From a virus (taxonomy: Duplodnaviria; Heunggongvirae; Uroviricota; Caudoviricetes), in IMG/VR virus record IMGVR_UViG_3300025162_000035: a stretch of 64,000 nt of DNA. The stretch is one strand, 5' to 3'. The position numbers and the translations under genes were made by a program. A model generated the notes under the pieces. That model did no database searches. It saw nothing but the letters and a program-made list of their open reading frames with translations, and was not told the DNA's origin. This document shows positions 3,017-52,420 of the stretch, one piece after another (the first letter of the stretch is position 1; each line of letters opens with the position of its first letter).

Positions 3017-4420
3017 ATTGTGGATACATACATTCTGTAAGGAAATAACAACTGCCCATTGTAATTGAAAGCAAGCTGTTCAAATTGTGGATACATACAT
3101 TCTGTAAGGAAATAACAACCGAGCATTAAATGACGTTTATTTGTTGGAAATTGTGGATACATAAAATAACAACTATACCAAAGTGTTTCTTTTGGTTGTT
3201 CTTATTGTGGATACATACATTCTGTAAGGAAATAACAACATTGATTATACACCCCCCGCTGGGCGACAACATTGTGGATACATACATTCTGTAAGGAAAT
3301 AACAACAACCCCAAGATGAAGAATAGAGTTTCAGTATGTGGATACATACATTCTGTAAGGAAATAACAACAGCTTTGATAATTCACGGATCACCAACAAG
3401 ATTGTGATTCACGGATCACCAACAAGATTGTGGATATTGTGGATACATACATTCTGTAAGGAAATAACAACTTAGATCGGTTTTCACGAGAAGGTGTGTT
3501 GGATTATGATTTGGATAACTCTGAATATTGCAGCCTAATTGTGGATAAACTGCGCTGCATTCTGTAAGGAAATAACAACTCCCCTGCTTTTATGGGCACA
3601 TTTGAACCATTGTGGATACATACATTCTGCAAGGAAATAACAACAATGTGCAACGGTTTGAATTCTGTACCATAATTGTGGATACATACATTCTGTAAGG
3701 AAATAACAACATAAGGTAGTCGAGATAGTAAGAATAATAGATTACATTCTGTAAGGAAATAACAACTACTGGGTAATGAATACTCCGCCTATGCGTATTG
3801 TGGATACATACATTCTGTAAGGAAATAACAACTCTGCATTAAGTTGGGTCTGCCTTCTACGATGTGAATACATATTCTGTAAGGAAATAACAACAAGAAG
3901 TATGGTATATCTACTGTTACCATCATTGTGGAACATACATTCTGTAAGGAAATAACAACTTTACGTTCAGCATTCATATTTATTGTTTTTATTGTGGATA
4001 TTCTGTAAGGAAATAACAACATGCGATATCGGCAGTTACACTGGTTCGTTACCAATATTTGAATACATTCTGTAAGGAAATAATAATCAGGTTGCAAAGT
4101 TATTTTTAGTAGCATTGGACACATTCTGTAAGGAAATAACAATTATTGACAAACAAATCCACGTGCACCAGATAACATTCTGTAAGGAAATAACAACAGC
4201 CTATACGATATGGAGTTGGACAACACATACATTCTGTAAGGAAATAACAACTGCTTGTGCCAGTGGAATTCACCTCTATGATTGTGGATACATTCTGTAA
4301 GGAAATAACAACGAAAGATATGTTCCGATATCCACCAGTTTCAATATTCTGTAAGGAAATAACAACCTGTTCGCATAACTTCACAACAATTGTGGGTATA
4401 CATAACATTCTGTAAGGAAA
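3017..4420 (+). CRISPR. CRISPR array, about 22 repeat units; 36-nt consensus ATTGTGGATACATACATTCTGTAAGGAAATAACAAC; spacers mostly 29-31 nt
   Basis: Near-perfect 36-nt repeats at 3017, 3084, 3204, 3271, 3336, 3436, 3609, 3675 and 3797. The distal units carry variable deletions of the 5' part but always keep the 3' 21 nt ATTCTGTAAGGAAATAACAAC. All spacers are unique and GC-richer than the genome. Confidence 0.7.
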
Positions 4421-4452
4421 TTTTTTTATCCGAATATTGTTTATATATTTGT
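4420..4452 (+). promoter_or_regulatory. promoter-like element (T-tract plus extended -10 'TTGTTTATATATTTG') for gene 4472
   Basis: Matches the motif that recurs upstream of at least 12 other genes; lies 20 nt before the ATG. Confidence 0.45.
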
Positions 4453-4471
4453 AACCTAAATCAAATATAAT

Positions 4472-4825
4472 ATGAGACTTACATCGGAAAATAAAGTTGC
4501 AATTGATAAGATAAAATCTCTTTATGCGGAAATCAGCAAGATTAAGGCTAACCTTATCAATGATTGCAAACTTCAGGTTGGCGATACAGTCGAAGTTACA
4601 TTTGAAATGTGGGATAAAAATTTCAAACTTGATTTAGAATCTCTATCCAAAGCATCCCAATCAAAAGTTATAATGTCCAGAAAAGCATATGTTCAGAAGG
4701 TTGACGTTGATGATGATGGTCGGTTCAATGTAACATTTCAGAAGATCAAGCAGAACGGTGAACTTTCATCACAGATCGATTCTTTTCAGGATGTTATCAA
4801 AGTCATATCAATTAAAAAAGTGTAA
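4472..4825 (+). CDS. hypothetical protein (117 aa)
   Basis: ORF track; promoter motif upstream. Confidence 0.5.
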   Translation: MRLTSENKVAIDKIKSLYAEISKIKANLINDCKLQVGDTVEVTFEMWDKNFKLDLESLSKASQSKVIMSRKAYVQKVDVDDDGRFNVTFQKIKQNGELSSQIDSFQDVIKVISIKKV

Positions 4826-4826
4826 T

Positions 4827-5057
4827 ATGGCAAAGAAAATCTTTAAGTTTGTCGGGAATGATACCATTCTTGTTGATATAACTACAAAGAAATCAGAAAT
4901 TCTGGAGTTTTTAAACCAGTTTTCAACTGATCATTTCGAAAAAACTTGTGCCGAGCCAGCAGCAGTTGCATTTGAAACATATTTAAAGTCCAATATATCA
5001 CAAGAACCTAAGTATTGGTATTTTGAAATTATTTACAGAGAATGGTTATCTAAATAA
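4827..5057 (+). CDS. hypothetical protein (76 aa; ATG at 4827, start MAKKIFKF)
   Basis: The track ORF 4758..5057 overlaps the previous gene, so the internal ATG 2 nt after that gene's stop is the more likely start. Confidence 0.4.
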   Translation: MAKKIFKFVGNDTILVDITTKKSEILEFLNQFSTDHFEKTCAEPAAVAFETYLKSNISQEPKYWYFEIIYREWLSK

Positions 5058-5064
5058 TAAAATT

Positions 5065-5414
5065 ATGGAAAATTCGAAACCTTATTACTTTATTAGCAAC
5101 ATCGACAATCAGGTTCATAAGACCACTGAGCTGGCTAATTGCAAAATAACACGGAAGCAGCACTCCACCAATGCGATTGGGGGTATTTTATTTTATCTAT
5201 TACACGTATGACCAGAGGAGAAATAATTATAAAAGAATTTATGACCAAACTCCCAAGGGGGTCTATGATTGGGCATCTTTTGCTAACCGAACCTTTAATA
5301 TTGAAAGCAATAAGGCAAAATTCTTTGGATTCGTGGCTTGAAGCATCTGGTGATCCTGATATTGAAGCTCAAACAAAAAAATTTAATAAATGGTATGACG
5401 AACTAATCAATTGA
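5065..5414 (+). pseudogene. possibly frameshifted gene (track ORFs 5023..5211 and 5139..5414 overlap in different frames)
   Basis: Two partially overlapping ORFs with the same GC-richer composition. Either an indel, a pseudogene or two small genes. Confidence 0.25.
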
Positions 5415-5440
5415 ATATTAACTTAACCCAATAAACTATT

Positions 5441-6736: not shown

Positions 6737-6863
6737 GCACCCAGAGCAGCACCCAGTACATTTAGATTTACCCTTGAACGTCTTTCTAATCTTGAAAAAG
6801 GTTATGAAAGACGTTCCTGTTATTATGAGGAATACAATAATATATTGGAAGATCATTTGTATA

Positions 6864-6900
6864 CATTTTTTTATTTGAATATTATTTATATATTTGCATG
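6864..6900 (+). promoter_or_regulatory. promoter-like element (T-tract plus 'TTTATATATTTGCATG')
   Basis: Same bipartite motif; 15 nt upstream of the ATG at 6915. Confidence 0.45.
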
Positions 6901-6914
6901 ATAAATCAATAAAT

Positions 6915-7118
6915 ATGAGTAGGATCGTTGATATTATTGCTGAGATGGAAAAAATGAAGGAACCAGTAATTGATTTTTGTATTGTTGAATTAGCCAGTGG
7001 TAGAATGACAATTCTTCAAATTCGAGAACTATTACATCCTATTGAAATTGATGATAAAATGTTACATACAATTAATACCAAGGTTAGAAAACTAAAATTA
7101 AATAAGATCGGAGGGTAA
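6915..7118 (+). CDS. small ORF (67 aa from ATG 6915) ending in the Lys-rich motif ...KVRKLKLNKIGG*; probably an N-terminal extension of MetRS
   Basis: C-terminal motif shared with at least 11 other small proteins; stop codon is preceded by GGAGGG; the MetRS frame opens at 7102, inside this ORF. Confidence 0.45.
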   Translation: MSRIVDIIAEMEKMKEPVIDFCIVELASGRMTILQIRELLHPIEIDDKMLHTINTKVRKLKLNKIGG

Positions 7119-8547
7119 CATCGAAAAGTTATTTATAACAACAACACTTCCATATAGTAACGGAGTGGCCCATGCGGGGCATTGTCTTGAATTTATATTA
7201 GCTGATTTTATTGCTCGATATAAGACTTCTGAAGGTTATGATGTATTTTTTAATGTCGGATTGGACGAGGCTGGTGCCAAAATTTCGGACGCTGCGTCAG
7301 CAGCCAATATACCAGTTGATGAATATTTAGAAGATTTGGCTATAAAATGGATTGAATTTTGCAAATTATTCAACATTTCATATACAAATTTCTATAGAAC
7401 AATATCAAAAGATCATCATGATAAAGTTCAATTATTTTGGGAAAGTTGTCTTTTAAATGGCGACTTATATAAGAAAGAATATACTGCAAAATATTGCACT
7501 GGATGTGAATCTTTCAAAACGGAAAAGGATTTAATAAATGGAAAGTGCCCAGAGCATACAAAATTGGAAATTTCCGAAATATCCGAAGAAAATTGGTTTT
7601 TCAGATTAACAAAGTATAAAGATGAAATTTATGATTTTGTTAAAAAGACTAACTTTTTAACTCCACACAATAAATTATACGAGTTACTTAATCAAATTTC
7701 TGGAGCTGAAGATATATCAGTATCAAGAGATAAGAGTCGTGTTTCATTAGGTGTAGATGTTCCAAACGATGACGGGCAAATAATATATGTGTGGTTTTCG
7801 GCACTTTTGAACTATATTATTGCTGCTGGCTGGGATGGCTCTGAAGATAAAACACTTTTCAATTCGTGGTGGAAAAATACCCTTCAGATTTGTGGTCCTG
7901 ATAATTTGAAATTTCAAGGGCTTATATTTCAGTCTTTGCTGGCATCCCAAAATATCTCATTCACCAAGAAGTTACTGGTTCATGGGACTATTACAGATTC
8001 CAACGGTAATAAAATGTCAAAGACAGAAGGTAATGTCATTGATCCAATATCCCAATTAAACAAATTTGGATTGGATGCTGTAAGGTATTACATTCTGGCT
8101 GGTCTCAATACAACCGCCAATAATAGTTGGAGTGAATTGGATTTGATTAATCTTTTCAATTCCGATGTTGTTGATGGGTTTGGTAATCTTATTGCCAGAA
8201 CACTTCATTTGATTGACATTAATAACGTTGAAGTTATTGAGCCAAGTGCGCTTTTTAAAGATTATATCGATGATATCTTAATTGATTCCAGAAAACAACT
8301 GGATAATTATGAAATTAAAGATGGTATAAAAACCGCCAATGAGGTTGTACGATATTGCAACACATATATTATTGAAAAAAAGCCTTGGTCTGATCCAGTC
8401 AATAGTGAAGAAGTTTTAAGCAACTTATATTATGCCCTGACCGCAATAGCTGACTTCTACCAGCCGATCTTCCCGAACAGGTACAAAGACATCACTGATG
8501 CATTAAAAGGCAAGAAAAAGGCTATTTTGTTCGCTAAAATTAAGTAA
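7102..8547 (+). CDS. metG: methionyl-tRNA synthetase (class I; core only, no C-terminal tRNA-binding domain); no ATG of its own
   Basis: KLFITTTLPYSNGVAHAGH (HIGH motif) and NKMSKT (KMSKS motif). The frame is open from 7102 but the first ATG/GTG codon is at 7165, after the Met-binding P-Y-x-N residues. Confidence 0.85.
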   Translation: MRSEGNIEKLFITTTLPYSNGVAHAGHCLEFILADFIARYKTSEGYDVFFNVGLDEAGAKISDAASAANIPVDEYLEDLAIKWIEFCKLFNISYTNFYRTISKDHHDKVQLFWESCLLNGDLYKKEYTAKYCTGCESFKTEKDLINGKCPEHTKLEISEISEENWFFRLTKYKDEIYDFVKKTNFLTPHNKLYELLNQISGAEDISVSRDKSRVSLGVDVPNDDGQIIYVWFSALLNYIIAAGWDGSEDKTLFNSWWKNTLQICGPDNLKFQGLIFQSLLASQNISFTKKLLVHGTITDSNGNKMSKTEGNVIDPISQLNKFGLDAVRYYILAGLNTTANNSWSELDLINLFNSDVVDGFGNLIARTLHLIDINNVEVIEPSALFKDYIDDILIDSRKQLDNYEIKDGIKTANEVVRYCNTYIIEKKPWSDPVNSEEVLSNLYYALTAIADFYQPIFPNRYKDITDALKGKKKAILFAKIK

Positions 8548-8816: not shown

Positions 8817-9205
8817 TGACGAGAATTAATTGTAATATTCCAGTTGAGTCTTTAACTAATAAACATTTATTGGCGGAGCATCGTGAAATTAAAAGAATTT
8901 GTTTTAGGCTCGAAGTGCGTTTAAATCAGAATAAGTTTGATGATATTCCAGCACCATTTTTTGAAATCAAAAAAAATGGTGAAATTGCTTTTAAGGAATT
9001 ATTTTGGTTAGATAAAGGAAAATTTACTTTGGATCGATATAAGAAGATTCATGCTCTTTGCAAGCAAAAAGGGTTTGATGTATCCGATTATAGCAATAAC
9101 TGGGAAATATACAAAAGAAAGCCAGAATTCTTTAATGATTATACCCCAACGGATGAACAAAATAAAATGATATTGGATAGAATTAATCAAAGACTAAAAA
9201 AATGA
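8816..9205 (+). CDS. denV: pyrimidine-dimer DNA glycosylase / endonuclease V (T4 DenV family)
   Basis: N-terminus MTRINCNIPVESLTNKHLLAEHREIKRI closely matches T4 DenV [27 protein letters not shown]. Confidence 0.85.
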   Translation: MTRINCNIPVESLTNKHLLAEHREIKRICFRLEVRLNQNKFDDIPAPFFEIKKNGEIAFKELFWLDKGKFTLDRYKKIHALCKQKGFDVSDYSNNWEIYKRKPEFFNDYTPTDEQNKMILDRINQRLKK

Positions 9206-18445: not shown

Positions 18446-18656
18446 AAAAATATGGACTACTCGTGAGGGAATTGAAATTGAGGTTTGTAAAATGTCCAAT
18501 GAACATATATCAAATGCCATAGTGTATGTTAATAAGCATTATGCTGAATGGGTTGCACACTTCGGAAAAAAAGAAGTTTTGGATCATTTGAAAAATCTTA
18601 AGGCTGAACTTCGTTACCGAAAATTAATCCGTATTAATAATTCAGAAGAACTTTAA
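18435..18656 (+). CDS. small hypothetical protein (73 aa)
   Basis: ORF track. Confidence 0.35.
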   Translation: MHDKKIWTTREGIEIEVCKMSNEHISNAIVYVNKHYAEWVAHFGKKEVLDHLKNLKAELRYRKLIRINNSEEL

Positions 18657-18690
18657 TTTTTTTTATTTGAAAATGTTTTATACATTTGTG
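18652..18690 (+). promoter_or_regulatory. promoter-like element (T-tract plus 'TTTTATACATTTGTG')
   Basis: Bipartite motif 18-21 nt upstream of the ATG at 18708. Confidence 0.4.
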
Positions 18691-19077: not shown

Positions 19078-20343
19078 ATGAAACGAACAAAAGTTAATGA
19101 ATTAGAAAAAAATGTCGGTAGCAAAGTTACCGTTAAAGGTCATGCTTACATAATTAGAATTGTAGGCAATATATCATTCATCATTTTAAGGGAGTATACT
19201 GGCTTCTGCCAGATCGTTTGTGAAAGTGAACTGGTTGGTCATCTCACACCTGAAAGTGTCGTAGAAGTCACAGGAATGGTCAGAATGAATAAAGAATCAA
19301 GATATAATGGAATAGAAGTTGCTGCTGAGGAGATAACTGTAATTTCACTGGCTGAGGTCCTTCCATTTACTATCAACAAAAAAGAAGAGGTTCCATTTTT
19401 GATTTTGAATAACCATCGGGCACTTTCACTCAGAAGGATAAGAGAACGAAACATATTTAAAATTCAATCTGAAATCGTTTGGGCTTACCGTGAATTTATG
19501 AGAAGCCAAGGTTTCACAGAAATCCAAAGCACAAAAATTTCTGGGTCTGGACTGGAAGGTGGCGGTGATCTATTTGAAGTTAATTACTTCGGAAATAAGC
19601 TCTGCCTTACCCAAAGCCCTCAATTTTATAAGCAAATGATGGTTGGGGTTTATGAGCGGGTATTTGAAGTTGGTAAAGTATATCGAGCCGAAAGCCATGG
19701 TTCTAACCGACATTTGGCTGAGTTTGTTGGGTTCGATTTTGAAATGGGATTCATCGAAAATGTTGAAGAAGTGATGGTTATGGAACAAGAAGCCTTGAAA
19801 TATATCTTCAACCATTTGAATTCTGTTTGTGCCAGCGAACTTGCATTTTTTAAAGTTCAGGCACCGAGTATCACAGAAATCCCAATGCTTACATATGAAG
19901 AAGCCCTTCGAAACACTGGTAAGAAATTTAATCGTGCTGGGTTAAATCCAGAAATGGAATCATTGATAAGCAAATATGTCAAGAAAACGTACAACAGTGA
20001 ATTTACATTCATTACAAAGTACCCATTATCTGAAAGACCATTCTATGCTATGCCATCAAAAGAGGAAGGTTGTTCTGAGACTTTTGAATTACTCTATAAT
20101 GGACTGGAAATAACCACAGGTGGTCAGCGTATTCATAATTATAAAATGCTTTTGGAAGTTATGGAAAGCAAAGGTATGAAACCTGAAAACTATAAAAGTT
20201 ACTTAGCAGCGTTTCGTTATGGTATGCCGCCACATGGTGGGCTTGGTATTGGCTTGGAGCGTATTATAATGAAATTGCTGAACCTTCAAAGTGTCGAGGA
20301 AGCATCATTAATTCCAAGAACCAGAGAAAAATTTATAAATTAA
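19078..20343 (+). CDS. aspS: aspartyl-tRNA synthetase, archaeal/eukaryotic type (class IIb)
   Basis: QSPQFYKQ, motif 2 YRAESHGSNRHLAEFVGFDFEM, and C-terminal FRYGMPPHGGLGIGLERIIM...IPRTREK; SD AGGAG 8 nt upstream. Confidence 0.9.
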   Translation: MKRTKVNELEKNVGSKVTVKGHAYIIRIVGNISFIILREYTGFCQIVCESELVGHLTPESVVEVTGMVRMNKESRYNGIEVAAEEITVISLAEVLPFTINKKEEVPFLILNNHRALSLRRIRERNIFKIQSEIVWAYREFMRSQGFTEIQSTKISGSGLEGGGDLFEVNYFGNKLCLTQSPQFYKQMMVGVYERVFEVGKVYRAESHGSNRHLAEFVGFDFEMGFIENVEEVMVMEQEALKYIFNHLNSVCASELAFFKVQAPSITEIPMLTYEEALRNTGKKFNRAGLNPEMESLISKYVKKTYNSEFTFITKYPLSERPFYAMPSKEEGCSETFELLYNGLEITTGGQRIHNYKMLLEVMESKGMKPENYKSYLAAFRYGMPPHGGLGIGLERIIMKLLNLQSVEEASLIPRTREKFIN

Positions 20344-20380
20344 TTTTTTTATATTAAAAATTGTTTTATATTTGCATTGG
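20341..20380 (+). promoter_or_regulatory. promoter-like element between the aspS stop and a strong terminator
   Basis: AATTTTTTTATATTAAAAATTGTTTTATATTTGCATTGG resembles the recurring promoter motif; no ORF before the terminator at 20424. Confidence 0.3.
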
Positions 20381-20423
20381 TTTTATGATTTCATATGTTT
20401 TAGTTTTATGCGTTTTAGTGAGA

Positions 20424-20450
20424 GAGGGGCTTCGTGCCCCTCTTTTTTGA
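20424..20450 (+). terminator. intrinsic terminator
   Basis: AGAGGGGCTTCGTGCCCCTCTTTTTTG: 8-bp GC stem, TTCG loop, T-run. Confidence 0.65.
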
Positions 20451-20526
20451 TTAAAGACAAAAATAATGTTTGAATAATTTTTTTATTAAAGAAAGAATAT
20501 TTACTTTTGTCAAAAATAAACTCGAT

Positions 20527-22545: not shown

Positions 22546-22622
22546 GGGCCCTTAGCTCAGATGGTTAGAGCAACTGACTCATAATCAGTAGGTCGCTGGT
22601 TCAAATCCAGCAGGGCCCACCA
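22546..22622 (+). tRNA. tRNA-Met (anticodon CAT; could be initiator, elongator or Ile2), with encoded CCA
   Basis: Cloverleaf: acceptor GGGCCCT/AGGGCCC, D-arm GCTCAGATGGTTAGAGC, anticodon loop CTCATAA, T-arm GCTGGTTCAAATCCAGC, then ACCA. Confidence 0.85.
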
Positions 22623-23296: not shown

Positions 23297-23599
23297 ATGA
23301 AAAAATTTAAACCACTTACGTGGAGAGATAATACAACAAAGCAGGGTAAACACCTTGGTATTGTATATATTGCTTCTGATGTTGATGTGCTCGAAATATA
23401 TTATTCGATCACAAATTATAAAAACTTTGAAGGTGAAATAAAGCCTACTGATGATGACACTAATAAATTCTATTTCCAGATCGGTGGACATTATTTTGAT
23501 GAAGAGCCAGAACCTGTAGTGGTGTCTTCAATTGAAGAAGCAAAACTATTAGCTCAGCAAGATTTCGAAAAAAGAGTAACTGAATTATTTTTCATTTAA
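23297..23599 (+). CDS. hypothetical protein (100 aa)
   Basis: ORF track. Confidence 0.4.
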   Translation: MKKFKPLTWRDNTTKQGKHLGIVYIASDVDVLEIYYSITNYKNFEGEIKPTDDDTNKFYFQIGGHYFDEEPEPVVVSSIEEAKLLAQQDFEKRVTELFFI

Positions 23600-23634
23600 T
23601 TTTTTATTACAATATTTTTTTATATCTTTGCACG

Positions 23635-23889
23635 ATGAATAAAAAGAAGCTAAATAAAGTTTATGATATTCTGGTCACCATAGGTGATGCAAATGAAAGA
23701 ATGAGAGAATCATTTATTCATTATCACCTTAGGGAAAGCGGATCACATGAATGGCGATTTAGTGGAAACCTTGGGTTTGGTGGTAAATATCGATTGGATG
23801 AAAACTCTGTCGATTGTTATTCTGAAGATGAAACACCAGAAAGATTTGAAATAATAAAACGAATTAACGAAGAATTATCAAAGATATGA
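23635..23889 (+). CDS. hypothetical protein (84 aa)
   Basis: ORF track; variant promoter-like T-tract plus TATATCTTTGCA upstream. Confidence 0.4.
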   Translation: MNKKKLNKVYDILVTIGDANERMRESFIHYHLRESGSHEWRFSGNLGFGGKYRLDENSVDCYSEDETPERFEIIKRINEELSKI

Positions 23890-24522: not shown

Positions 24523-24597
24523 GGCCCTATAGTATAATGGCAAAAAGTACGGAAAATTTTGGATTTTCAGGATAAGGTTCGATTCCTTATAGGGCTG
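24523..24597 (+). tRNA. tRNA, anticodon tentatively TTG (Gln)
   Basis: Acceptor GGCCCTA/TAGGGCT, D-arm GTAT-AATGGCAAAAA-GTAC, anticodon stem GAAAA/TTTTC with loop TTTTGGA, T-arm TAAGGTTCGATTCCTTA. Confidence 0.55.
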
Positions 24598-24615
24598 CAA
24601 AAAAATATAACATAC

Positions 24616-24686
24616 TGATCCATAGCATAATGCAGTGTGTCACCCTTTGAAGGTGTTCGGTATAGGTTCGAGTCCTATTGGATCAA
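24616..24686 (+). tRNA. tRNA with a reduced D-arm, anticodon tentatively TTG (Gln)
   Basis: Acceptor TGATCCA/TGGATCA, anticodon stem CACC/GGTG with loop CTTTGAA, T-arm ATAGGTTCGAGTCCTAT; D-stem only 3 bp and no GG in the D-loop. Confidence 0.4.
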
Positions 24687-24691
24687 CACAA

Positions 24692-24763
24692 TGCTCCATC
24701 GACCAACGGCTAAGTCGTGAGTCTCTGAAACTCAAGATGATGGTTCAAATCCATCTGGGGCAA
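24692..24763 (+). tRNA. tRNA, anticodon tentatively CTG (Gln)
   Basis: Acceptor TGCTCCA/TGGGGCA (one G-U pair), D-loop CAACGGCTAA, anticodon stem TGAGT/ACTCA with loop CTCTGAA, T-arm GATGGTTCAAATCCATC. Confidence 0.5.
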
Positions 24764-24830
24764 CAATGTCCATATTGGTATTTTTTTGACTTTTTTATTT
24801 TAATATATAGAATAAAAAAGAATTATACCT

Positions 24831-29690: not shown

Positions 29691-29745
29691 ACAAATATAC
29701 AAACATTATACGAGAAAAAAAAATTATACGAGAAAAATTATTAAC
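29691..29745 (-). promoter_or_regulatory. promoter-like element (duplicated T-tract/CTCGTATAA plus TTGTATATTTGT)
   Basis: Minus-strand reading ...TTTTTTTTTCTCGTATAATGTTTGTATATTTGTAGTC, 24 nt before ATG(MIERK). Confidence 0.45.
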
Positions 29746-30915: not shown

Positions 30916-31432
30916 TTATTTGGAATTAATAATGTTCATAATTGCAGTGAGTTGCTCATGAGTCAAGGTGTCAATGGATTTCCTGACATCATCCTTCATT
31001 TTATTGATTTCACTGTTTAGCCGCCATTTGGCTGATATTTCTTTGGCTTCATCATCGGAAATAATTTCGCAGCGGCTAACGGAACCCATATCCATTCTAC
31101 TTGAGCCAACTCCCCGACCACTACCAGTGAAATCAAACAACGTAGGCTCATCCCCAATTTTGAATGATGTTTTAGTAACTTTGGTTATTTTACTGATTGA
31201 ATCTTTTTGGGAGTAGCTCATTCCATGAGTCCATAGAACGTATTTTCCGACAAGCTTTTCGTGATGACCATCAAATGAACGAAAAGTAACAGTAATTGAA
31301 TTTTCATCAGCGAAAGATATTCCACCACCACCATCAAATTCTACGATGCACTGGCTACCTTCACCATAACGCTGAAATGTACCATGTTTGCCATCTACTG
31401 TGATTCTGTCTCCGAAATTAAGATTTTTCATA
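30916..31432 (-). CDS. hypothetical protein (about 172 aa from MKNLNFGDRITVDGK)
   Basis: The track ORF extends through the terminator and promoter; the internal ATG at 31432 lies 22 nt after the promoter motif. Confidence 0.45.
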
Positions 31433-31454
31433 TGGAATATTTTAGTTTGACTCT

Positions 31455-31490
31455 GCAAATATATAAACATTCTTCGAATAAAAAAAATTT
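31455..31490 (-). promoter_or_regulatory. promoter-like element (T-tract plus TTTATATATTTGCAGAG)
   Basis: Same bipartite motif on the minus strand. Confidence 0.45.
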
Positions 31491-31496
31491 TAGTTA

Positions 31497-31526
31497 AAAA
31501 AAATCCCCCGATGTCGGGGGATTTTA
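31497..31526. terminator. bidirectional intrinsic terminator
   Basis: AAAAAAATCCCCCGATGTCGGGGGATTTTAATT: 5-GC stem flanked by an A-run and a T-run, 20 nt after the stop of the SPFH gene. Confidence 0.6.
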
Positions 31527-31546
31527 ATTCACATGGCAAATGGCAT

Positions 31547-32440
31547 TTATTTGTGTGCGCCATTTGTTGTATCAGGTGTGCTGACTTTCTTTGGTGCAGC
31601 GGGTGCCCTGCCACCTCCGCCAGTTTCGACAGGTAATGTTGCTGGAATTCCACCGAAAATGATTGTTACATTGGTGTGATCCTTGATCAACTCAACCTTT
31701 TCCTTTTCAATTTCAAGCTGTCTTAAGTGCAAATATTCACCTATTGACATTCCCATTGAACTCTGGTATGCTTTATCCGCAATAGCCTTCTTTGTTTCGG
31801 CAGCAGCTCGTGCATCTTCAGCTTTTGCTCTTGCGCCTTGCGTAAGGATACTTTGATTCTGCGCAGCGGTCAATTTTGTTTCTGTAAGAACCTGTTCGGG
31901 CGGGGTAATTGCACCAATAGAAACCTGAACAACTGATATTGGAAGTCCCATCTTTACGCAAAAATCCGTAATTTCTTTAAATATCTCTTTTTCAAGCTGT
32001 TCTGAAATTTCACGTTTACTTGCTAAATCGAACATTTTGAAAACACATGCTTTATCACGGACCATTGTACGGAAAGGTGCTTGTAGGTTATTTTTGTACC
32101 ATTCAACTCCAAAATGCTGGTGTAGATAAGGAGTCTTGCCTGATATAACCTGAATTCTCAAATACACAGAAAATGAAATTGGTGTATTATCGGATGGAAT
32201 CATGTTACTGAAATCTTCAGTGAACGTAAGTGGTGTAATTGTATACAACTGGCTTTCAGTAGTCCACACACACCATTCAGCTCCTGTTTGAACAGGCACT
32301 GGATCAACGCCCCCATGCCCGAAAAGGTATGGTTTGTAAGTTAGTACAGCTTCTTCGCCAGCGTTTGGCTGAACCCGATAGCAACTTGTTAAGCTTGTAA
32401 GCGTAAGCGCAAGTACAATCATTAAATAGATTTTTTTCAT
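31547..32440 (-). CDS. SPFH/band-7 (prohibitin/HflC-like) lipoprotein
   Basis: Signal plus lipobox LTSLTSC; SPFH-like core with an Ala/Glu/Lys-rich coiled-coil (ARAKAEDARAAAETKKAIADKA); GC-richer. Confidence 0.65.
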   Translation of the reverse strand: MKKIYLMIVLALTLTSLTSCYRVQPNAGEEAVLTYKPYLFGHGGVDPVPVQTGAEWCVWTTESQLYTITPLTFTEDFSNMIPSDNTPISFSVYLRIQVISGKTPYLHQHFGVEWYKNNLQAPFRTMVRDKACVFKMFDLASKREISEQLEKEIFKEITDFCVKMGLPISVVQVSIGAITPPEQVLTETKLTAAQNQSILTQGARAKAEDARAAAETKKAIADKAYQSSMGMSIGEYLHLRQLEIEKEKVELIKDHTNVTIIFGGIPATLPVETGGGGRAPAAPKKVSTPDTTNGAHK

Positions 32441-32667: not shown

Positions 32668-32909
32668 ATTTTTTTATTACGTTTTTAAATTTCTAAAACA
32701 AAGATAAATTAAATATTTGTTAAAAAAAAATAATCTTAAAAATAATTGTGTTTGATATCCAACGAAGTACCAAAATTGGATGGAAAAGTGTTATTTTTTG
32801 AAAATATATAGTTGTGATGATGATTTTTTCACTACCCAAAACACAAATAGCCGTAATTGTTTTTCAAGAATAGTTACGGCTATTTTGTTTAAAAAATAAA
32901 ACAAACTAT

Positions 32910-35423: not shown

Positions 35424-35458
35424 ACAAATATACAAACATATTATGAGAAAAAAAAATC
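35424..35458 (-). promoter_or_regulatory. promoter-like element (T-tract plus TTGTATATTTGT)
   Basis: 18 nt upstream of ATG(MTKEKEK). Confidence 0.45.
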
Positions 35459-35828: not shown

Positions 35829-36304
35829 ATTTTACCGATTAAAAAGTTTATAAATGCAATAGAATCAAGCTGGTAGTACATGTAATTTATAACTGCCAGT
35901 GTCAGTAAAATTATCGATAATACCGAATCTATAGAAAATAGAAAATTTCTTATTTTGAAGCTTTTCTTGAATATACGTTTAGATAGTTCATGAAGGAGCA
36001 TCAAAACAATTACCCCAGCAAAAAATATATAATTGTACGTGAATAATCCAATGATCAGACATATGAAATAAAATAACTGAAAAAATGCATGTTTCAGGGT
36101 ATTTATCATAAATTTGCTTGGAGTGTGCTTTTTCCACTTGACTTTTATTTGATCCTTATATTTTGAGTAGATTTCAAGCGTCCTGTAGTACACCTTATTT
36201 TGAATTATGCACTGGATTTCATAAGCTATCAATATTGTTATTAACAGATAGAATACCATATTAAATATTTTTAGATTAAGCCCAAAGTTACAAAGATTTT
36301 TCAA
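35825..36304 (-). CDS. polytopic membrane protein (159 aa)
   Basis: Four hydrophobic segments. Confidence 0.45.
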   Translation of the reverse strand: MKNLCNFGLNLKIFNMVFYLLITILIAYEIQCIIQNKVYYRTLEIYSKYKDQIKVKWKKHTPSKFMINTLKHAFFQLFYFICLIIGLFTYNYIFFAGVIVLMLLHELSKRIFKKSFKIRNFLFSIDSVLSIILLTLAVINYMYYQLDSIAFINFLIGKI

Positions 36305-36334
36305 ACAAAAAAATAATTATAAACTATTATTTGT

Positions 36335-38280: not shown

Positions 38281-38316
38281 GATACAAATGTACAACAGTT
38301 TATCGAGAAAAAAAAA
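38281..38316 (-). promoter_or_regulatory. promoter-like element (AAATTTTTTTTTCTCGATAAACTGTTGTACATTTGT)
   Basis: Canonical copy of the recurring motif. Confidence 0.45.
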
Positions 38317-38317
38317 T

Positions 38318-38638
38318 TTAAGGTGATTTTTTTTCAATTTTTTTCAATTTCTTTTTTCTAATTTCAGATTGGGTGCAGAAATATGTCCATAAATAAGGAT
38401 AAACTTGCCTTTTGTTTTGATGCACTCTAAATCCAAAGGTCGTTATTAATTTAACCTTTGAATTTGTTATATAAATTACTGTCATCAATTCTAATGGAAT
38501 ATCGTATGTGTACCCAAGTTCAATAGCCTTTTCAGGATCACCTTCACCGCCATTGACATTGTAATATTCACCCACTTCAAAAATTCCTCCCCAATTTTTT
38601 TTACAATACAATACCTTTAGATTGTTTAATGTCAGCAT
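38318..38638 (-). CDS. small protein of the Lys-rich-C-terminus family (VLYCKKNWGG...SEIRKKKLKKIEKKSP*)
   Basis: Family motifs; 7-nt overlap with purN. Confidence 0.45.
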   Translation of the reverse strand: MLTLNNLKVLYCKKNWGGIFEVGEYYNVNGGEGDPEKAIELGYTYDIPLELMTVIYITNSKVKLITTFGFRVHQNKRQVYPYLWTYFCTQSEIRKKKLKKIEKKSP

Positions 38639-39204
38639 ATTTTTAAAATTTTTTCAATTGTTTCTGGAAAATGTTTATATTCCAACAAATGAATTTTGTT
38701 TGCTAATGATTCTGGGGTTTCATCAGCATCTATTTTACATGTAGACTGAAAAATAATATCACCGTCATCATATTTTTCATTGACGTAATGAATTGTGATC
38801 CCAGAAGCTTTTTCCTTATTTGATATGACTGCCTTGTGAACCTTCATGCCATACATTCCTTTTCCGCCATATTTTTTTAATGATAGGGCTGGATGAATGT
38901 TTATGATATTATTACTATAAGCGGTTATAATAGACTTTGGTATTAACCAAAGAAATCCAGCAAGTACAATAAAGTCTATTCTATAGAATGCCAACATATC
39001 TGTAACTTTGTTACTTTCATATAGATCATATTTATCAAACACCATGGACTTCAATTTTAGGTCTTTACATCTATTCAAAACCCCAGCCTTTGAATTATTA
39101 CATAGCACCAATTCTATCTGAATTTCATTACTATTCTTGAAATATTCAGATATTCTTTGTACATTTGAACCATTACCAGACGCAAATAAAGCTATTTTTA
39201 TCAT
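38632..39204 (-). CDS. purN: phosphoribosylglycinamide formyltransferase (PurN family)
   Basis: LFASGNGSN, VLAGFLWLI, NIHPALSLKKYGG, HYVNEKYDDGDIIFQ all match the PurN formyl-transferase core. Confidence 0.75.
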   Translation of the reverse strand: MIKIALFASGNGSNVQRISEYFKNSNEIQIELVLCNNSKAGVLNRCKDLKLKSMVFDKYDLYESNKVTDMLAFYRIDFIVLAGFLWLIPKSIITAYSNNIINIHPALSLKKYGGKGMYGMKVHKAVISNKEKASGITIHYVNEKYDDGDIIFQSTCKIDADETPESLANKIHLLEYKHFPETIEKILKIC

Positions 39205-39259
39205 AAACTTTTTATTCAGATTTAACTACAAAGATAACTAATTATTATTTAATTTCCAA

Positions 39260-39640
39260 ATGTCAAGAATAGAGCAACGCCAAGAAAGTGTACTTTGCAA
39301 GAAAGATTATTTAGTAGGCGAAGACTTAAGATTCAAAAAAGGCGAAATTTATCAATCTGTTTTCATAACAAGTGATAAAAGTTTATTTTTATCTGAGGAA
39401 TGTATTGTCTATAAAACTCAAAATTTTATGGAATATAGCTTTCCAAAATTAACATTTCCAAAAAACAGAATTGCGATTATGGGTGGGTCAACAGATAGGT
39501 TTCATATTAAATATACTATAAAAAATGCAAGTTATAAAATAACAATAATTTGCGGGTTGCCAGAATTTAGTGAATATTTTTGTGATACTGTTGAATTAAG
39601 AAAGTTTAAACTTCAAAAAATTAAATCATGCATACTTTAG
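39260..39640 (+). CDS. small protein of the Lys-rich-C-terminus family (VLCKKDYLVGEDLRFKKGEIY...VELRKFKLQKIKSCIL*)
   Basis: Family motifs; 13-nt overlap with the start of the CCA-type NTase. Confidence 0.45.
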   Translation: MSRIEQRQESVLCKKDYLVGEDLRFKKGEIYQSVFITSDKSLFLSEECIVYKTQNFMEYSFPKLTFPKNRIAIMGGSTDRFHIKYTIKNASYKITIICGLPEFSEYFCDTVELRKFKLQKIKSCIL

Positions 39641-40952: not shown

Positions 40953-41066
40953 AAAATTTCTTATTTATTTAACATTATTTATCGAAAAATAGACTTTTTC
41001 ACCTTTATTGTTTTATATATAAATTTACCATTAAAAAGGTAAATTTTCCAAAAAAACAGGTGATAA

Positions 41067-43484: not shown

Positions 43485-43520
43485 GGCAAATATAAGAAAT
43501 TTTTTCGTATAAAAAAAATT
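43485..43520 (-). promoter_or_regulatory. promoter-like element (T-tract plus TTCTTATATTTGCC)
   Basis: 19 nt upstream of ATG(MDFTAIL). Confidence 0.4.
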
Positions 43521-44376: not shown

Positions 44377-44668
44377 TTAAAAAAGATTGCCAACAATCAC
44401 TATTTTCAAAATCTTTTAAAAATCTTTCAGCACACGACCAATCAGATTTAACCATTTCATCTTCTGTTTGTGAATATTCTGGAGATAATCTATACACTGA
44501 AAAATTGTTCAATATCATTATATACCAAGAATACATACAACCATTGGCGTTTTTGTATATAATCGGGTCTTTTGTTACCGATTTTAAAAATATTGCTGGG
44601 TATGAATTAATAAATTTGTTGTGCAATATTTCTTTAAACTTCTTTGTAAGTTCTTCCATTTCAACCAA
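44357..44668 (-). CDS. hypothetical protein (103 aa)
   Basis: ORF track. Confidence 0.35.
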   Translation of the reverse strand: MVEMEELTKKFKEILHNKFINSYPAIFLKSVTKDPIIYKNANGCMYSWYIMILNNFSVYRLSPEYSQTEDEMVKSDWSCAERFLKDFENSDCWQSFLIGNMQL

Positions 44669-44878
44669 ATTTAAAGATGCCAGAACTGGTCAACCACCAC
44701 GCTACCCACCATGTTTCGTGCACCGAGATATGGTAAAAACGATTTTTGCAATCTCCCATATTTTACGATAGCCTTACTATGCCTTAGCCTTGTCCGTTGT
44801 TTTCTGACTTTGACTACAAAAATACAAAATATATTTCAATAAAAAAAAATAGTGATAAAAATTTAATATATAGAGAAT

Positions 44879-47886: not shown

Positions 47887-48160
47887 TTTTTATTTTTTGT
47901 AGTTTTTTCTTTCGTTGTATACAAACACATTCTTTTTTTATTAGTTCAACGCATTCGGTAGCAGTAGCTTCTTCTTCTTGCATTAAAGACGTGTTCCAAG
48001 TATTTTTACTATGTTTTTCTCTATAAGTACCAATAACATAAGTAAAATCACCCAACTTTCTTATATGATAATAATCCCCTAATGCATGATCAACATGAGT
48101 TCCATAAGGTTTCATATAAGCTATAAATTCTTTTTCTGTTGTAATTTCTTCCATTTTCAT
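47879..48160 (-). CDS. small protein of the Lys-rich-C-terminus family (...IQRKKKLQKIKNG*)
   Basis: C-terminal motif ending exactly in KNG with the overlapping ATG. Confidence 0.45.
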   Translation of the reverse strand: MKMEEITTEKEFIAYMKPYGTHVDHALGDYYHIRKLGDFTYVIGTYREKHSKNTWNTSLMQEEEATATECVELIKKECVCIQRKKKLQKIKNG

Positions 48161-48401
48161 AGTGCAAATATAGTGAACATTTTATTAATAAAAAAATCGC
48201 AAATATCTATCAACTTTATGTATATTTGCGATTATAAATAACCTATAAAAAAATAATAAAATAATTGAAGGCTAAATATAGTTTTATTCGTTGATTATCA
48301 GATTTTTAAATAATAAAATTGGCAAAAAACGAGTTTTATATTTACATATATACGTGCACATTCAAAAAATAAAAAAATAAGGAGGAAAAAATACCTAAGA
48401 A

Positions 48402-49448: not shown

Positions 49449-49572
49449 AATATATCAAAAAGTGACTATAAACCAATGAATTTCTTTCATAGCGTAAACA
49501 AGCCACACATAAAATTTTATGTACCATGGGGTTCGTTTACGTATTGCTTCTAATCTGGGGTTTTTTAACATA

Positions 49573-50277
49573 TTAATATGGTTGGTGGTTACTGAATCCT
49601 TCGCAATTATTGCAAATGAGCTGGGCTAAATCAACCCCATGATGCTCACACGTAGCGCAAGATACTTGGTCTTCCGTTGGTAGTGCAGAAAGCTTATGTG
49701 CCCTGATAAACACCAAAAGTGCTTTCTCCAAGTTATCTTTTGTGACTTTATCCATGTGCGGTCTTTCTTTGCAAAATTTCTGCATGGTGCTGAAAACCTT
49801 AAGAACAAAATGTGATGGTGGTTCTTTTGGACGGACCTGATTGATTGTTTTATTGTTTAGCAGCATTTTCATGAACCTTGACTGATCAATTGACGGCAAT
49901 ACGATCTTTGTCTTTTCGTCAATTTTTGTAATAAGCGCAAGTGTTTCTTCATTGCATTCCAGAAGTTCAAACTCGATCTTATTAGCATCACTCAGCTTAG
50001 CCCAAAAACGGCTACCAGCAAGCGGGTGTTTTTTATTCACATCCTTTGGGATAGTAAAAGTTACAGAACTGTAATTACTTACACCTTTTCTGATGTAGAT
50101 GCGATCAACCCCAAGGGTTGTACCTTCTGGAATGGTTACAACTTCATTGCATCTGTACGACATGGTTTTACCGAGTAGTTGAAAAAGTTTTGCATTTCTG
50201 CTTTCCCCACACAATACAAATGTCCAGTCTGCTGTGAGTTTAAGTTTGGTTCCGATTTCTGGAATAAATAGATTCAT
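49573..50277 (-). CDS. hypothetical protein (234 aa), GC-richer
   Basis: ORF track; C-terminal CxxC...CNNCEG. Confidence 0.45.
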   Translation of the reverse strand: MNLFIPEIGTKLKLTADWTFVLCGESRNAKLFQLLGKTMSYRCNEVVTIPEGTTLGVDRIYIRKGVSNYSSVTFTIPKDVNKKHPLAGSRFWAKLSDANKIEFELLECNEETLALITKIDEKTKIVLPSIDQSRFMKMLLNNKTINQVRPKEPPSHFVLKVFSTMQKFCKERPHMDKVTKDNLEKALLVFIRAHKLSALPTEDQVSCATCEHHGVDLAQLICNNCEGFSNHQPY

Positions 50278-50440
50278 AAATTTTCGTTTTGAATGTTAAT
50301 TGCGATTTGATGCAGAACGTTTGGTAATAAAACCTTTCCAACTGCACCATGCTTTAATCTTTCAGATGTTTTCTGAATGAAGATTTGTCCATTTTCTAAT
50401 AATTCGACTGAGTACCACATAGTTTTAAAAATTAAACAGA

Positions 50441-50460
50441 AAAACCCCACCGAAGTGGGG
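50441..50460 (-). terminator. intrinsic terminator for the minus-strand gene 50483..51115
   Basis: Minus-strand CCCCACTTCGGTGGGGTTTT; an A-run on the other side gives it bidirectional potential. Confidence 0.6.
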
Positions 50461-50482
50461 TTTGACTGGATTGGTTAATACT

Positions 50483-51115
50483 TTATTTTATTGCGATGGT
50501 CGGGTCGATTTCCCTGAGGAACTTTTCAACATCACCCTTGCCAGTTGTCATGGCTTCGTCAATGGCACCTTTCTTGATGCTGACTGTCGTGTTAGGTTTG
50601 ATGAGATTAACTTTTTCTTCAGGGGTCAAAAACTTTGCGCTCATGATAAGCTTTCCAAGTGCTTCAGCGTGATCTCCAAGGATTTTAGGATCGAATGAGA
50701 AAGTTGTTTCTTCCACAACAACATCCTCCCCATAGATTTCCTGAAGTTCCTGAGCCCTTTCAGGGGAAAGGATTTTGTAAGCATCCTTAGGCTGGATCAT
50801 GACAGCCAGTACATCATTCGGGTCTTTTGCTTCGGTGAGAAGGTCAAAACTGTCAGGGTTACGTTTGTTTTCGGCATACAGGCGGATGAATTCGGTTGTT
50901 CCCAAATCCTTGATGATTCCCTGAGCAGTTTCGAGGTCTGCCTTTGCGTTAGCAAGGTCAGTCTTGGCTTTCTTGAATTTCGCAACGGTGTCTGCGAATT
51001 CTGCGCCCTTGATCGTGACCTGAGGTCTTGACGATTTCTTGGCAGCGGTCTTTGTGTTCGGGGTTGCCTTCTGTGCGAAAGGATTAAAAGCTGGGGTTGA
51101 AGTTGATTTTGCCAT
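50483..51115 (-). CDS. hypothetical Ala/Lys-rich protein (210 aa), GC-richer, with its own promoter motif and terminator
   Basis: Stand-alone unit; composition differs from the flanks. Confidence 0.5.
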   Translation of the reverse strand: MAKSTSTPAFNPFAQKATPNTKTAAKKSSRPQVTIKGAEFADTVAKFKKAKTDLANAKADLETAQGIIKDLGTTEFIRLYAENKRNPDSFDLLTEAKDPNDVLAVMIQPKDAYKILSPERAQELQEIYGEDVVVEETTFSFDPKILGDHAEALGKLIMSAKFLTPEEKVNLIKPNTTVSIKKGAIDEAMTTGKGDVEKFLREIDPTIAIK

Positions 51116-51162
51116 AGTTTTAAGTTTTTGAGGTTAAAATTTTCTGTGAATTAATTACTCGA

Positions 51163-51197
51163 CAAATGTACGAACTATTTCTGAATAAAAAAAATTT
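51163..51197 (-). promoter_or_regulatory. promoter-like element (T-tract plus TCGTACATTTGTCG)
   Basis: 46 nt upstream of ATG 51115. Confidence 0.4.
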
Positions 51198-51218
51198 CAG
51201 AGAAAGTTTTTTGAAAAT

Positions 51219-51590
51219 TTATGTTAAATCTTCGATAAGTTTCTTTGTGGCAAGGTATTCGGGGTTTGTGATTGATGTAATATATTCTTGTACATTCAGA
51301 CAACATAATTGAATGACGGTGCCAATGCCTGACATAAATGCCACAATACCAAGAATAATACCCAATGTTTCTTCATTACTGTGACCATAAGAGTCATGCG
51401 GCAATGCCATAACTTTAAAGCAAAGAATGATAGTAATCGCACCAAGGAGCATGGCAAAGGCAAACTTCATCCAGAAATAGATTCCGATCAGCTTAACCTG
51501 TTTCAGATACTGTCCGTAGACTTTTTCGGCTGTGGTTCCCATTTTCTCAGCCAATTTTTCGATGAGGGGAAGAAAATCTTTTGTTTCCAT
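51219..51590 (-). CDS. membrane protein (123 aa, 3 TM)
   Basis: Hydrophobic segments. Confidence 0.45.
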   Translation of the reverse strand: METKDFLPLIEKLAEKMGTTAEKVYGQYLKQVKLIGIYFWMKFAFAMLLGAITIILCFKVMALPHDSYGHSNEETLGIILGIVAFMSGIGTVIQLCCLNVQEYITSITNPEYLATKKLIEDLT

Positions 51591-51628
51591 ATGTTATAAA
51601 TTTAAGTTAAACGACATTGTTTAACGAT

Positions 51629-51663
51629 GCAAATGTACAACCTTATTTCGAGAAAAAAAAATT
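51629..51663 (-). promoter_or_regulatory. promoter-like element (AAATTTTTTTTTCTCGAAATAAGGTTGTACATTTGC)
   Basis: 38 nt upstream of ATG 51590. Confidence 0.45.
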
Positions 51664-51674
51664 TAAACGAAAAT

Positions 51675-52370
51675 TTAATATCTCATGCCAGATTTTGATA
51701 CTCCGTTTTTTGCAATGTTATCTTGACCCTTTTGATAATTTCTTAAATAATTACTATGTTCAGCCTTTTCTCTTGATTCAACAAAATTTCTTTGGGTAGC
51801 TTCATATTCAGCTTCATCTTTACATCTTTGTTGTTCCCATTTTTGTTCCCATTCTGATGAATGTCTATGAGTTTCCTTTGGCTGGGCCAAATCGATCATA
51901 TATTGATGTTTTTCCTCAAATGAATATCCCCATAGTGCACTACGTGATGCTATAGCTGCCAAGTCTCTGATCAATGAGATTAATCTGACCCTTTTATCAT
52001 TTTGAAAAAGGTTTTCAAGAGCGTTAGACATGTCGGACAAAGTATATATTGTCCATGCAACAAGTGATACTGGCTTAATTTTATTATATGCGTTGATAGC
52101 ATAGAAATCTTTCAAATCCAGATTTTGATAATTCCAATATAATCGATGACTAAAATCTTCATGAGAGTATTCAGAACGATAGTTGTGATTTATTTTCCAC
52201 CATTCTAATGCCGATCCCTTTAGCATGTTTTTAATATGTGTAAAATGTGAATGGTCAGGAAAATGTTCATTTAAACATTGAAATACCAACCAAACATACA
52301 TATCTTCTAACTGAGAATTGGTTGGCTCTTTTGATAATAAAAATTCGAATTTTTCTAATGAGTTGTCCAT
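51675..52370 (-). CDS. hypothetical protein (231 aa)
   Basis: ORF track. Confidence 0.45.
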   Translation of the reverse strand: MDNSLEKFEFLLSKEPTNSQLEDMYVWLVFQCLNEHFPDHSHFTHIKNMLKGSALEWWKINHNYRSEYSHEDFSHRLYWNYQNLDLKDFYAINAYNKIKPVSLVAWTIYTLSDMSNALENLFQNDKRVRLISLIRDLAAIASRSALWGYSFEEKHQYMIDLAQPKETHRHSSEWEQKWEQQRCKDEAEYEATQRNFVESREKAEHSNYLRNYQKGQDNIAKNGVSKSGMRY

Positions 52371-52385
52371 TGGTTTAGTTTTGAG

Positions 52386-52420
52386 GCAAATCTACAACCT
52401 TTTTTCGAATAAAAAAAATT
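52386..52420 (-). promoter_or_regulatory. promoter-like element (T-tract plus TTGTAGATTTGCC)
   Basis: 15 nt upstream of ATG 52370. Confidence 0.45.

Follow-up and report, generated by a model that had tools for sequence, protein, structure and literature searches.

Promoters of the Bacteroidota that are read by the primary sigma factor, sigma-ABfr or sigma-A, were reportedly described by Bayley (2000), Vingadassalom (2005) and Chen (2007). The consensus for this sigma factor consists of TTTG at -33 and TAnnTTTG at -7 (PMC6847099; Ryan 2020, PMC7366714; PMC9723704). For Flavobacterium johnsoniae, a narrower form of the box was given, TAHHTTTG spanning -12 to -5, with transcription starting 4-5 nucleotides (nt) past it, and the -33 motif is weak or undetectable there (Baez 2019, PMC6847099). 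The DNA considered here is a stretch of 64,000 nt (the window) from the virus record IMGVR_UViG_3300025162_000035, in which a preliminary description had pointed out a recurrent promoter-like element, composed of a T-tract and a box read as an extended -10. We find that this element, here called the class I motif, most likely belongs to the known Bacteroidota promoter family, which is textbook and not categorically new, and that a rigidly placed T-run precedes its box.

The window has 32% G+C and is tightly packed with short open reading frames (ORFs) on both strands. Alignment of 20 class I sites (Table 1) gave the consensus A(A)-T7-9-(A/C)-T-Y-(C/T)-G-A-A-rich-N-TTT-N-TAnnTTTG-(C/T)-A, and positions upstream of the T-run carried almost no information. 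The spacing is essentially fixed, the end of the T-run lying 15, 16 and 17 nt before TA in 5, 12 and 3 sites, instead of the variable N4-8 spacer proposed previously. Two details of the earlier consensus held for a part of the sites only: the CG of its CGA was found in the spacer of 9 of the 20, and the G of its TTG stood directly before TA in about 7 of the 20 (0.39 in the pseudocounted position weight matrix, PWM). The stretch T7-A-TTCGAA-A5 is partly palindromic in nine sites. When the short pattern TTGTAYATTTG was searched with one mismatch allowed, 20 matches were obtained against 8.6 expected; the informative signal is the full architecture aligned on TAnnTTTG. This overall architecture, A(A)-T7-9-N15-17-TAnnTTTG, occurs 20 times in the window against 0.3-0.6 by chance. 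Likewise, 20 sites reached a PWM score of 15 or more compared with 0.27 expected, and the leave-one-out scores were all 14.5 or higher. A PWM-free test for a T7 run 14-18 nt before TAnnTTTG also gave 20 matches, compared with 0.6 in Markov simulations (maximum 3); these were 19 of the 20 class I sites and one intragenic antisense site at 58301 (+). TAnnTTTG occurs a further 97 times in the window, in no case with the upstream module. At 58275..58308 (+), GAATTTTTTTGCGAATTTAACATTACTACCTTTG weakly resembles class I (PWM score 12.6); it lies antisense inside the gene for a 745-amino acid (aa) protein (57387-59624, minus strand) and is an antisense promoter or else a match by chance.

The preliminary description had suggested comparing the frequency of the motif with that in coding regions. 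All 20 sites lie in non-coding DNA, which occupies 9.9% of the window, and each of them faces an ORF that follows it on its own strand. Between box and ATG there are 4-47 nt at 18 sites and 152 and 157 nt at the remaining two, instead of the 15-46 nt given earlier. About 79 of the 124 window genes fall under a class I motif. Of the 13 or more copies first reported, 12 of the 13 listed positions are real (4420, 6864, 18652 and 20341 on the plus strand; 29691, 31455, 35424, 38281, 43485, 51163, 51629 and 52386 on the minus strand), and eight more were missing from the list (20502+, 23623+, 32706-, 36290-, 44824-, 48172-, 54370- and 61131-). The listed variant at 40990 is not a member, as it has no T-run, carries CACCTTTA in place of TAnnTTTG and scores below 8 in the PWM; the gap around it bears a second motif instead, TTTATATATA at 41012. 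A terminator directly upstream, said to be frequent, was seen at only two of the 20 sites (31463 and 48172), and the mean upstream folding energy equaled that of random windows. The promoter-like character proposed at the outset is thus well supported by position, orientation, fixed geometry and the conservation in relatives described below, and the architecture, placement, enrichment and conservation are all directly observed in the DNA.

Inspection of the box shows its correspondence with the -7 element. TA and TTTG were invariant in 20 of 20 sites, and the TAHHTTTG rule was followed in 19, since the variable positions were free of G in all boxes except TAGATTTG at 52394. With the box set at -12 to -5, the T-run falls at approximately -35 to -29, an A-rich stretch at approximately -24 to -19 and a TTT at -16 to -14. 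The position of the -33 element is therefore occupied by the T7-9 run, in which TTT is present and G is absent. In addition, two ATGs begin exactly 4 nt past TTTG, fitting the published spacing of 4-5 nt between box and start site, and leaderless mRNA is predicted for these two (23623-23637 on the plus strand and 48158-48172 on the minus strand) if transcription starts 4-5 nt after the box. Shine-Dalgarno cores precede 5% of genes, which equals the background of random windows, and the regions upstream of genes are A-rich. A canonical host-type promoter without T-run, TTTG-N20-TATCTTTG, was also found at 39229-39260 (-), with its box at 39236 and the ATG of a formyltransferase gene (38632-39204) 24 nt on, which shows that this phage also has host-type promoters of the plain form.

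Most likely, the class I elements are Bacteroidota sigma-A-type promoters read by the host polymerase. The host RNA polymerase with its primary sigma factor (sigma-ABfr / sigma-A) would bind TAnnTTTG at -12 to -5 and start transcription 4-5 nt past the G of the box, giving leaders mostly of 12-43 nt without Shine-Dalgarno sequence and two leaderless messages. The T-run would sit in place of the weak -33 TTTG of the host and would strengthen polymerase binding, either by contacts with sigma region 4 or alpha or by phased A/T-tract curvature; such stronger binding would make these promoters strong without the need for an activator.

The relatives of the window point in the same direction. Several ENA metagenome assemblies hold near-identical copies of it. 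Among deposited phages, the best match and closest complete genome is LR756501.1 (uncultured phage, 735,411 bp), which has homologs of 13 of the 124 window proteins at 28-74% identity, including PhoH at 74%. Al-Shayeb et al. (2020) reported a 735-kb genome as the largest described and placed all genomes larger than 634 kb in the 'Mahaphage' clade, with predicted replication in Bacteroidetes (PMC7162821). LR756501.1 accordingly belongs to this clade, whose predicted host phylum is Bacteroidetes, and since it is the best match, the window is a distant relative inside that lineage of huge phages. A megablast comparison of 20 kb of window DNA with cultured and deposited phages gave no match, and a search of IMG/VR with the 745-aa protein returned nothing. 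A scan of one genome per prokaryotic species with the strict pattern matched mostly Bacteroidota, among them Flavobacterium, Segatella, Bacteroidales, Algoriphagus and Zobellia. Some of these bacterial matches stand directly ahead of tRNA genes and cobalamin riboswitches, that is, ahead of bona fide units that begin just after the box. From these sequence comparisons, we infer a Bacteroidota host for this phage.

We then asked how specific the T-run is. The host baseline was an approximate one, consisting of 49 candidate promoters obtained by crude ORF-based filtering of motif-retrieved loci with the seeded site excluded. In these candidates, the frequency of T at -35 to -29 was 31-49%, and about 6% had a T-run. 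Of 23 candidate TAHHTTTG promoters in three cultured phages, B124-14 of Bacteroides and 11b and FCL-2 of Flavobacterium, none had one. AT-rich phage loci retrieved via PhoH mostly scored zero by the PWM, indicating that the matrix does not simply detect AT-richness. Multiple copies were found in the closest PhoH relatives (L182, L183 and L187) and in several 300-430-kb IMG/VR contigs. LR756501.1 gave 60 PWM hits, 56 of them within its 7.4% non-coding DNA. Without the PWM, a T-run was found in this genome at 48% of the intergenic TAHHTTTG boxes compared with 3.6% of the boxes inside genes, and the T-run ends peaked sharply at one position. Outside the phage of the window, the CG of TTCGA is not conserved, in contrast to the A-T7-A block and the A-rich spacer. 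This pattern of conservation indicates that the module is a lineage-specific elaboration of a known promoter type; the T-run variant is occasional in hosts and systematic in these phages. B124-14 (L229) has a module of its own, GTTAAAAYTTAAASTTT-N-TAnnTTTGCA, repeated at least five times, and in phage 11b (L246) terminator hairpins and T-runs lie directly against TGTATATTTG boxes. Bacteroidota phages each decorate the common -7 box differently.

A second motif, class II, TT(A/T)ATATATA, is found in further gaps between genes. It occurs 14 times in the window, 13 times in non-coding DNA (the form TTAATATATA in 8 of 8 cases), and 5-35 nt before the ATGs of genes that have no class I motif. LR756501.1 (L231-L245) has 215 copies, and 188 lie in non-coding DNA. 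Six nt past the motif, the base is A in 82% of cases, and in 22 this A begins an ATG, which suggests that transcription starts at this A and that leaderless mRNAs are frequent. The class II motif is probably a phage-specific middle or late promoter.

Most promoter-proximal genes of the window are ORFans on which PHROGs and Pfam gave no information, so gene function there could not assign a temporal class. In LR756501.1, each gene, as crudely called, was assigned to the nearest upstream motif on the same strand. Class I accounted for 35% of assigned genes. The median protein size was 111 aa in class I units, which also hold tRNAs, compared with 191 aa in class II units. Of the 45 largest proteins, 35 were encoded after class II and 2 after class I; a gene for a terminase large subunit and one for a tail fiber have class II sites 30-37 nt ahead of them. 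Orthologs of class I genes of the window were found in class I units of LR756501.1 in 8 of 9 cases, corresponding to five independent units against one. This split supports the earlier idea of a distinct regulon, and the suggestion of a temporal class gains indirect support from the existence of a second, mutually exclusive intergenic motif that would drive other genes. On balance, we lean toward class I marking an early or non-late gene class. This set would comprise small ORFans, tRNAs, aminoacyl-tRNA synthetases, RNA and DNA ligases and PPK2, and later genes would be served by TT(A/T)ATATATA-N5-A. Such a division would fit the common phage pattern of strengthened host-type promoters early and a phage-specific signal late.

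Several points weigh against a reading of class I by the host polymerase alone and against the timing attached to it. Where the canonical -33 TTTG would have its G, the class I sites have T. The scarcity of the T-run elsewhere (about 6% of the 49 host candidates and 0 of 23 in the three cultured phages) means that the module could be read by a phage factor and not by the host enzyme alone, and the partial palindrome of nine of the 20 sites would also suit a dimeric regulator. The identity of polymerase and sigma factor, the start sites, the timing and the host phylum are all deductions from sequence. In LR756501.1, crudely called ORFs were grouped into units by the closest motif upstream of them, which is sometimes more than 8 kb away.

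These points leave room for other explanations. It is conceivable, although doubtful, that the module A-T7-9-A/TTCGA is the site of a phage-directed change of the polymerase or of a phage factor. Class I genes would then form an early regulon that can be shut off as a block, and class II, often leaderless, would be read by a phage-encoded specificity factor in a two-tier program of the largest phages known. An unlikely alternative is that the -7 box is a basal host promoter and that A-T7-9-A-TTCGA-A4-5 is an operator, by which a dimeric regulator of phage or host switches the gene set jointly. The module is present in 20 of 20 sites compared with about 6% of host candidates, it is absent from the three cultured Bacteroidota phages, it is partly palindromic around TTCGAA in nine sites, and it overlaps the -33 region, which is a frequent repressor site. 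However, the CG core is missing in 11 of the 20 sites and in most sites of L182, L183, L187 and LR756501.1, where the T-run and the A-rich stretch alone persist. The same pattern is also found at tRNA and riboswitch promoters across diverse Bacteroidota, for which a common phage regulator is improbable, and no DNA-binding protein was identified in the window.

More improbable still is a sigma factor or RNA polymerase of the phage's own, mimicking the -7 specificity of the host. Huge phages can encode sigma-70-like and anti-sigma proteins (PMC7162821), and the upstream module is lineage-specific, but the box is identical to the host sigma-A consensus, and early phage genes generally need the host enzyme or one packaged in the virion. 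A tblastn search of the window and LR756501.1 with E. coli sigma-70 regions 2-4 and T4 gp55, a test of low sensitivity, found nothing.

The preliminary description favored an E. coli-like sigma-70 promoter, that is, an extended -10 TGnTATAAT with the T-tract as a T-rich UP element, a reading that we now consider highly improbable. Such promoters share with class I an AT-rich context and a box rich in TA some 10 bp ahead of the start site. In about half of the sites, TATATT agrees with TATAAT in 5 of 6 positions, TG abuts TA in about 7 of 20, T-rich DNA lies upstream, and the start predicted about 7 nt past TATATT falls where the Bacteroidota rule also puts it, 4-5 nt from the G. Nevertheless, the G of TGn, two bases before TA, was found in 0 of 20 sites (0.02 in the pseudocounted PWM), and no -35 TTGACA was seen. 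Conservation peaks in TTTG, which extends two bases beyond the hexamer, and the trailing TTG outside the -10 hexamer is unexplained by sigma-70, whereas TTTG is the mark of the Bacteroidota -7 element. Many boxes (TAACTT, TACTTT, TATCTT) match TATAAT poorly, and TAACTTTG, TACTTTTG and TATCTTTG are poor -10 hexamers. The T-run is also misplaced for an UP element, because it ends 15-17 nt from the box, at the -33 position and not at -40 to -60. Furthermore, sigma-70-type sites were not clearly enriched (103, 121 and 111 found against 115, 94 and 103 expected, respectively), genes show no excess of Shine-Dalgarno sequences, and the relatives are Bacteroidetes phages. Finally, a dispersed repeat that is no promoter (terminator T-run, recombination or packaging signal, or miniature mobile element) would also be short, repeated, AT-rich and intergenic only, and two copies do adjoin hairpins, but it is scarcely credible given the gene-ward orientation of 20 of 20 sites, the 4-47 nt to the ATG in 18 of 20, upstream hairpins at only 2 of 20, the lack of flanking repeats and the exact match to a well-characterized promoter consensus.

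Table 1. Positions of the class I elements (putative promoters), the class II boxes and the CRISPR-Cas features in the window. Distances are counted from the box to the ATG.
Feature	Position	Strand	E-value	Remarks
Class I, AAATTTTTTTATCCGAATATTGTTTATATATTTG	4418..4451	+		ATG 20 nt past box (gene 4472-4825); T-run fused to last, truncated CRISPR repeat
Class I	6863..6896	+		ATG 18 nt past box (6915); head of MetRS operon
Class I	18655..18688	+		ATG 19 nt past box (18708)
Class I, box 20367	20341..20374	+		no long ORF; about 80 nt, then hairpin GAGAGGGGCTTCGTGCCCCTC and T-run
Class I, box 20502	20476..20509	+		ATG 17 nt past box (20527); head of 11-gene run of small ORFs including tRNA-Met
Class I, box 23623, T6 run	23597..23630	+		ATG exactly 4 nt past TTTG (TTTGcacgATG); unit with three tRNA-Gln
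Class I, T9 run	29692..29725	-		ATG 25 nt past box (29666); TTG 29702 is false ORF start
Class I, top PWM score 40.0	31456..31489	-		ATG 24 nt past box (31431); terminator hairpin 31500-31525 just upstream
Class I, box 32706	32699..32732	-		ATG 31 nt past box (32667)
Class I	35425..35458	-		ATG 19 nt past box (35405, cation-efflux gene); TTG 35435 is false ORF start
Class I, box 36290	36283..36316	-		ATG 23 nt past box (36259)
Class I	38285..38318	-		ATG 39 nt past box (38245); RNA ligase gene in unit
Class I	43487..43520	-		ATG 18 nt past box (43468, DNA-ligase-like gene); TTG 43489 is false ORF start
Class I, box 44824	44817..44850	-		157 nt without ORF downstream, conserved in related phage
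Class I, box 48172	48165..48198	-		ATG exactly 4 nt past TTTG (TTTGcactATG); hairpin adjoins T-run
Class I	51163..51196	-		ATG 47 nt past box (51115)
Class I	51630..51663	-		ATG 39 nt past box (51590)
Class I, box TAGATTTG	52387..52420	-		sole box with G at an 'n' position; ATG 16 nt past box (52370)
Class I, box 54370	54363..54396	-		ATG 27 nt past box (54335)
Class I, box 61131	61124..61157	-		ATG 18 nt past box (61105); head of 10-gene unit including PPK2 and 745-aa protein
Class II boxes	11196+, 11209-, 14021+, 14034-, 15438+, 16761-, 18901+, 24800+, 36881-, 40475+, 41012+, 41023-, 44863+			
Cas3b C-terminus	ORF 51-413		1.8e-16	
Cas8b	422-1741		7.7e-54	
Cas7b	1771-2949		1e-41	
CRISPR array	3009-4426			at least 21 repeats ATTGTGGATACATACATTCTGTAAGGAAATAACAAC, spacing 54-67 nt

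The genes of the window include those for MetRS, an Asp/Asn-type tRNA synthetase, PhoH, an RNA ligase, a DNA-ligase-like protein, PPK2, a cation-efflux protein and a radical-SAM enzyme, together with four tRNAs, which were the only hits of Rfam over the window. The tRNAs, one tRNA-Met and three tRNA-Gln (anticodons TTG, TTG and CTG), lie at 22546-22622 and 24523-24764 (+) inside class I units. Class I elements directly ahead of tRNA genes were also found in LR756501.1 and L187.

Two class I elements are followed by stretches without a long ORF. Downstream of box 20367, a hairpin-ended stretch at 20375-20455 (+) is followed immediately by the element with box 20502, and it may give rise to a small RNA or encode a hydrophobic peptide of 21 aa, MISYVLVLCVLVREGLRAPLF. 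After box 44824, about 150 nt (44665-44816, minus strand) are free of ORFs and have a counterpart in the related phage contig L183 at 8868-9020 (+), which likewise follows a class I element and lies ahead of a tRNA. The ends of the stretch, 5' ACAACGGACAAGGCTAAGGC and 3' GGGYAGCG..GTGGTTGACCA, are conserved between the two, and a consensus fold of the two sequences contains 8 pairs with compensatory changes. No match to this stretch was found in Rfam. It may be a structured RNA or a leader.

The MetRS region (6915-8547, plus strand) has no canonical start codon ahead of the conserved N-terminus. In the MetRS frame, IEKLFITTTLPYSNGVAHAGH (7120 onward) lies just past in-frame stops and precedes the first GTG (7165), and an ORF of 67 aa in another frame (6915-7118) follows the promoter element. 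A frameshift, a non-canonical start or an assembly error could account for this anomaly.

The beginning of the window is occupied by a phage-encoded type I-B CRISPR-Cas locus (51-4426). The 5' halves of the repeats are degenerate from about 3851 onward, and no cas1, cas2, cas4, cas5 or cas6 was visible in the window. ORF calls on the minus strand at 2962-4408 are spurious. The leader at 2964-2996 (+), AATTTTTTTG-N15-TAAATATA, contains a T7 run and a 16-nt gap as in class I; its box is deviant, with TATA for TTTG, and lies about 13 nt ahead of the first repeat. This element may be the promoter of the array.

The class I motif is of practical use for annotation. As the preliminary description had noticed, ORF callers that accept TTG read through the element. 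The ORF listing starts at 29702, 35435 and 43489, while in the metagenome gene calls translation begins at the ATGs, with products of 394 aa and 296 aa, and the motif corrects these three over-extended ORFs as well as one that starts with ATG, at 31563. In the latter case (30916-31563, minus strand), the 215-aa product of the metagenome callers from ATG 31563 would contain the terminator hairpin and the promoter; the 171-aa product from 31431 is favored by a variant contig (L004) and by the position of the motif. The motif also delimits transcription units along the genome and, by sequence only, points to Bacteroidota as the host of this uncultured huge phage, and the two motifs together form a testable two-class timing model for the Mahaphage lineage. 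Since the promoters are compact (34 bp), probably strong and without Shine-Dalgarno sequence, they could be used for engineering Bacteroides or Flavobacterium. The variant with a rigid T-run, the systematic way in which Mahaphage-like huge phages use it and the pairing with a second motif appear to be undescribed: in the searchable literature, no description of this T-run promoter in phages was found, nor apparently one of transcription signals in the Mahaphage lineage.

Compared with Bacteroidota sigma-A promoters, the class I elements have the identical -7 box, including the avoidance of G at the variable positions and the following C/T and A, and share AT-rich features phased at about -18 and -28, genes without Shine-Dalgarno sequence, typical leader lengths and few leaderless cases. 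They differ in that the loose -33 TTTG is replaced by a strictly placed T7-9 run, preceded by A, and an (A/C)TYYGA-A-rich spacer. A conserved family of strong Bacteroides phage promoters, used as P_BfP1E6, was reportedly described by Whitaker et al. in 2017 (as cited in 10.1101/2025.03.18.644028). The promoters of Bacteroides phages (the P_BfP1E6 family, likened here by description only, and B124-14) resemble class I in combining the host -7 box TAnnTTTGCA with a conserved upstream module of their own that is repeated many times in one genome; the module of B124-14, GTTAAAAYTTAAASTTT..., is different and has no T-run. In phage T4, early promoters are super-consensus host promoters, and late promoters consist of a lone -10-like TATAAATA. 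The present system is similar in having two mutually exclusive intergenic motifs, with the strengthened host-type one ahead of small genes and tRNAs; the other, preceding terminase and tail-fiber genes, is like the T4 late class a lone A/T box (TTAATATATA), with a conserved A some 6 nt further on. The two systems are not related in sequence, and gp55-like and gp33-like proteins were not found in a test of low sensitivity.

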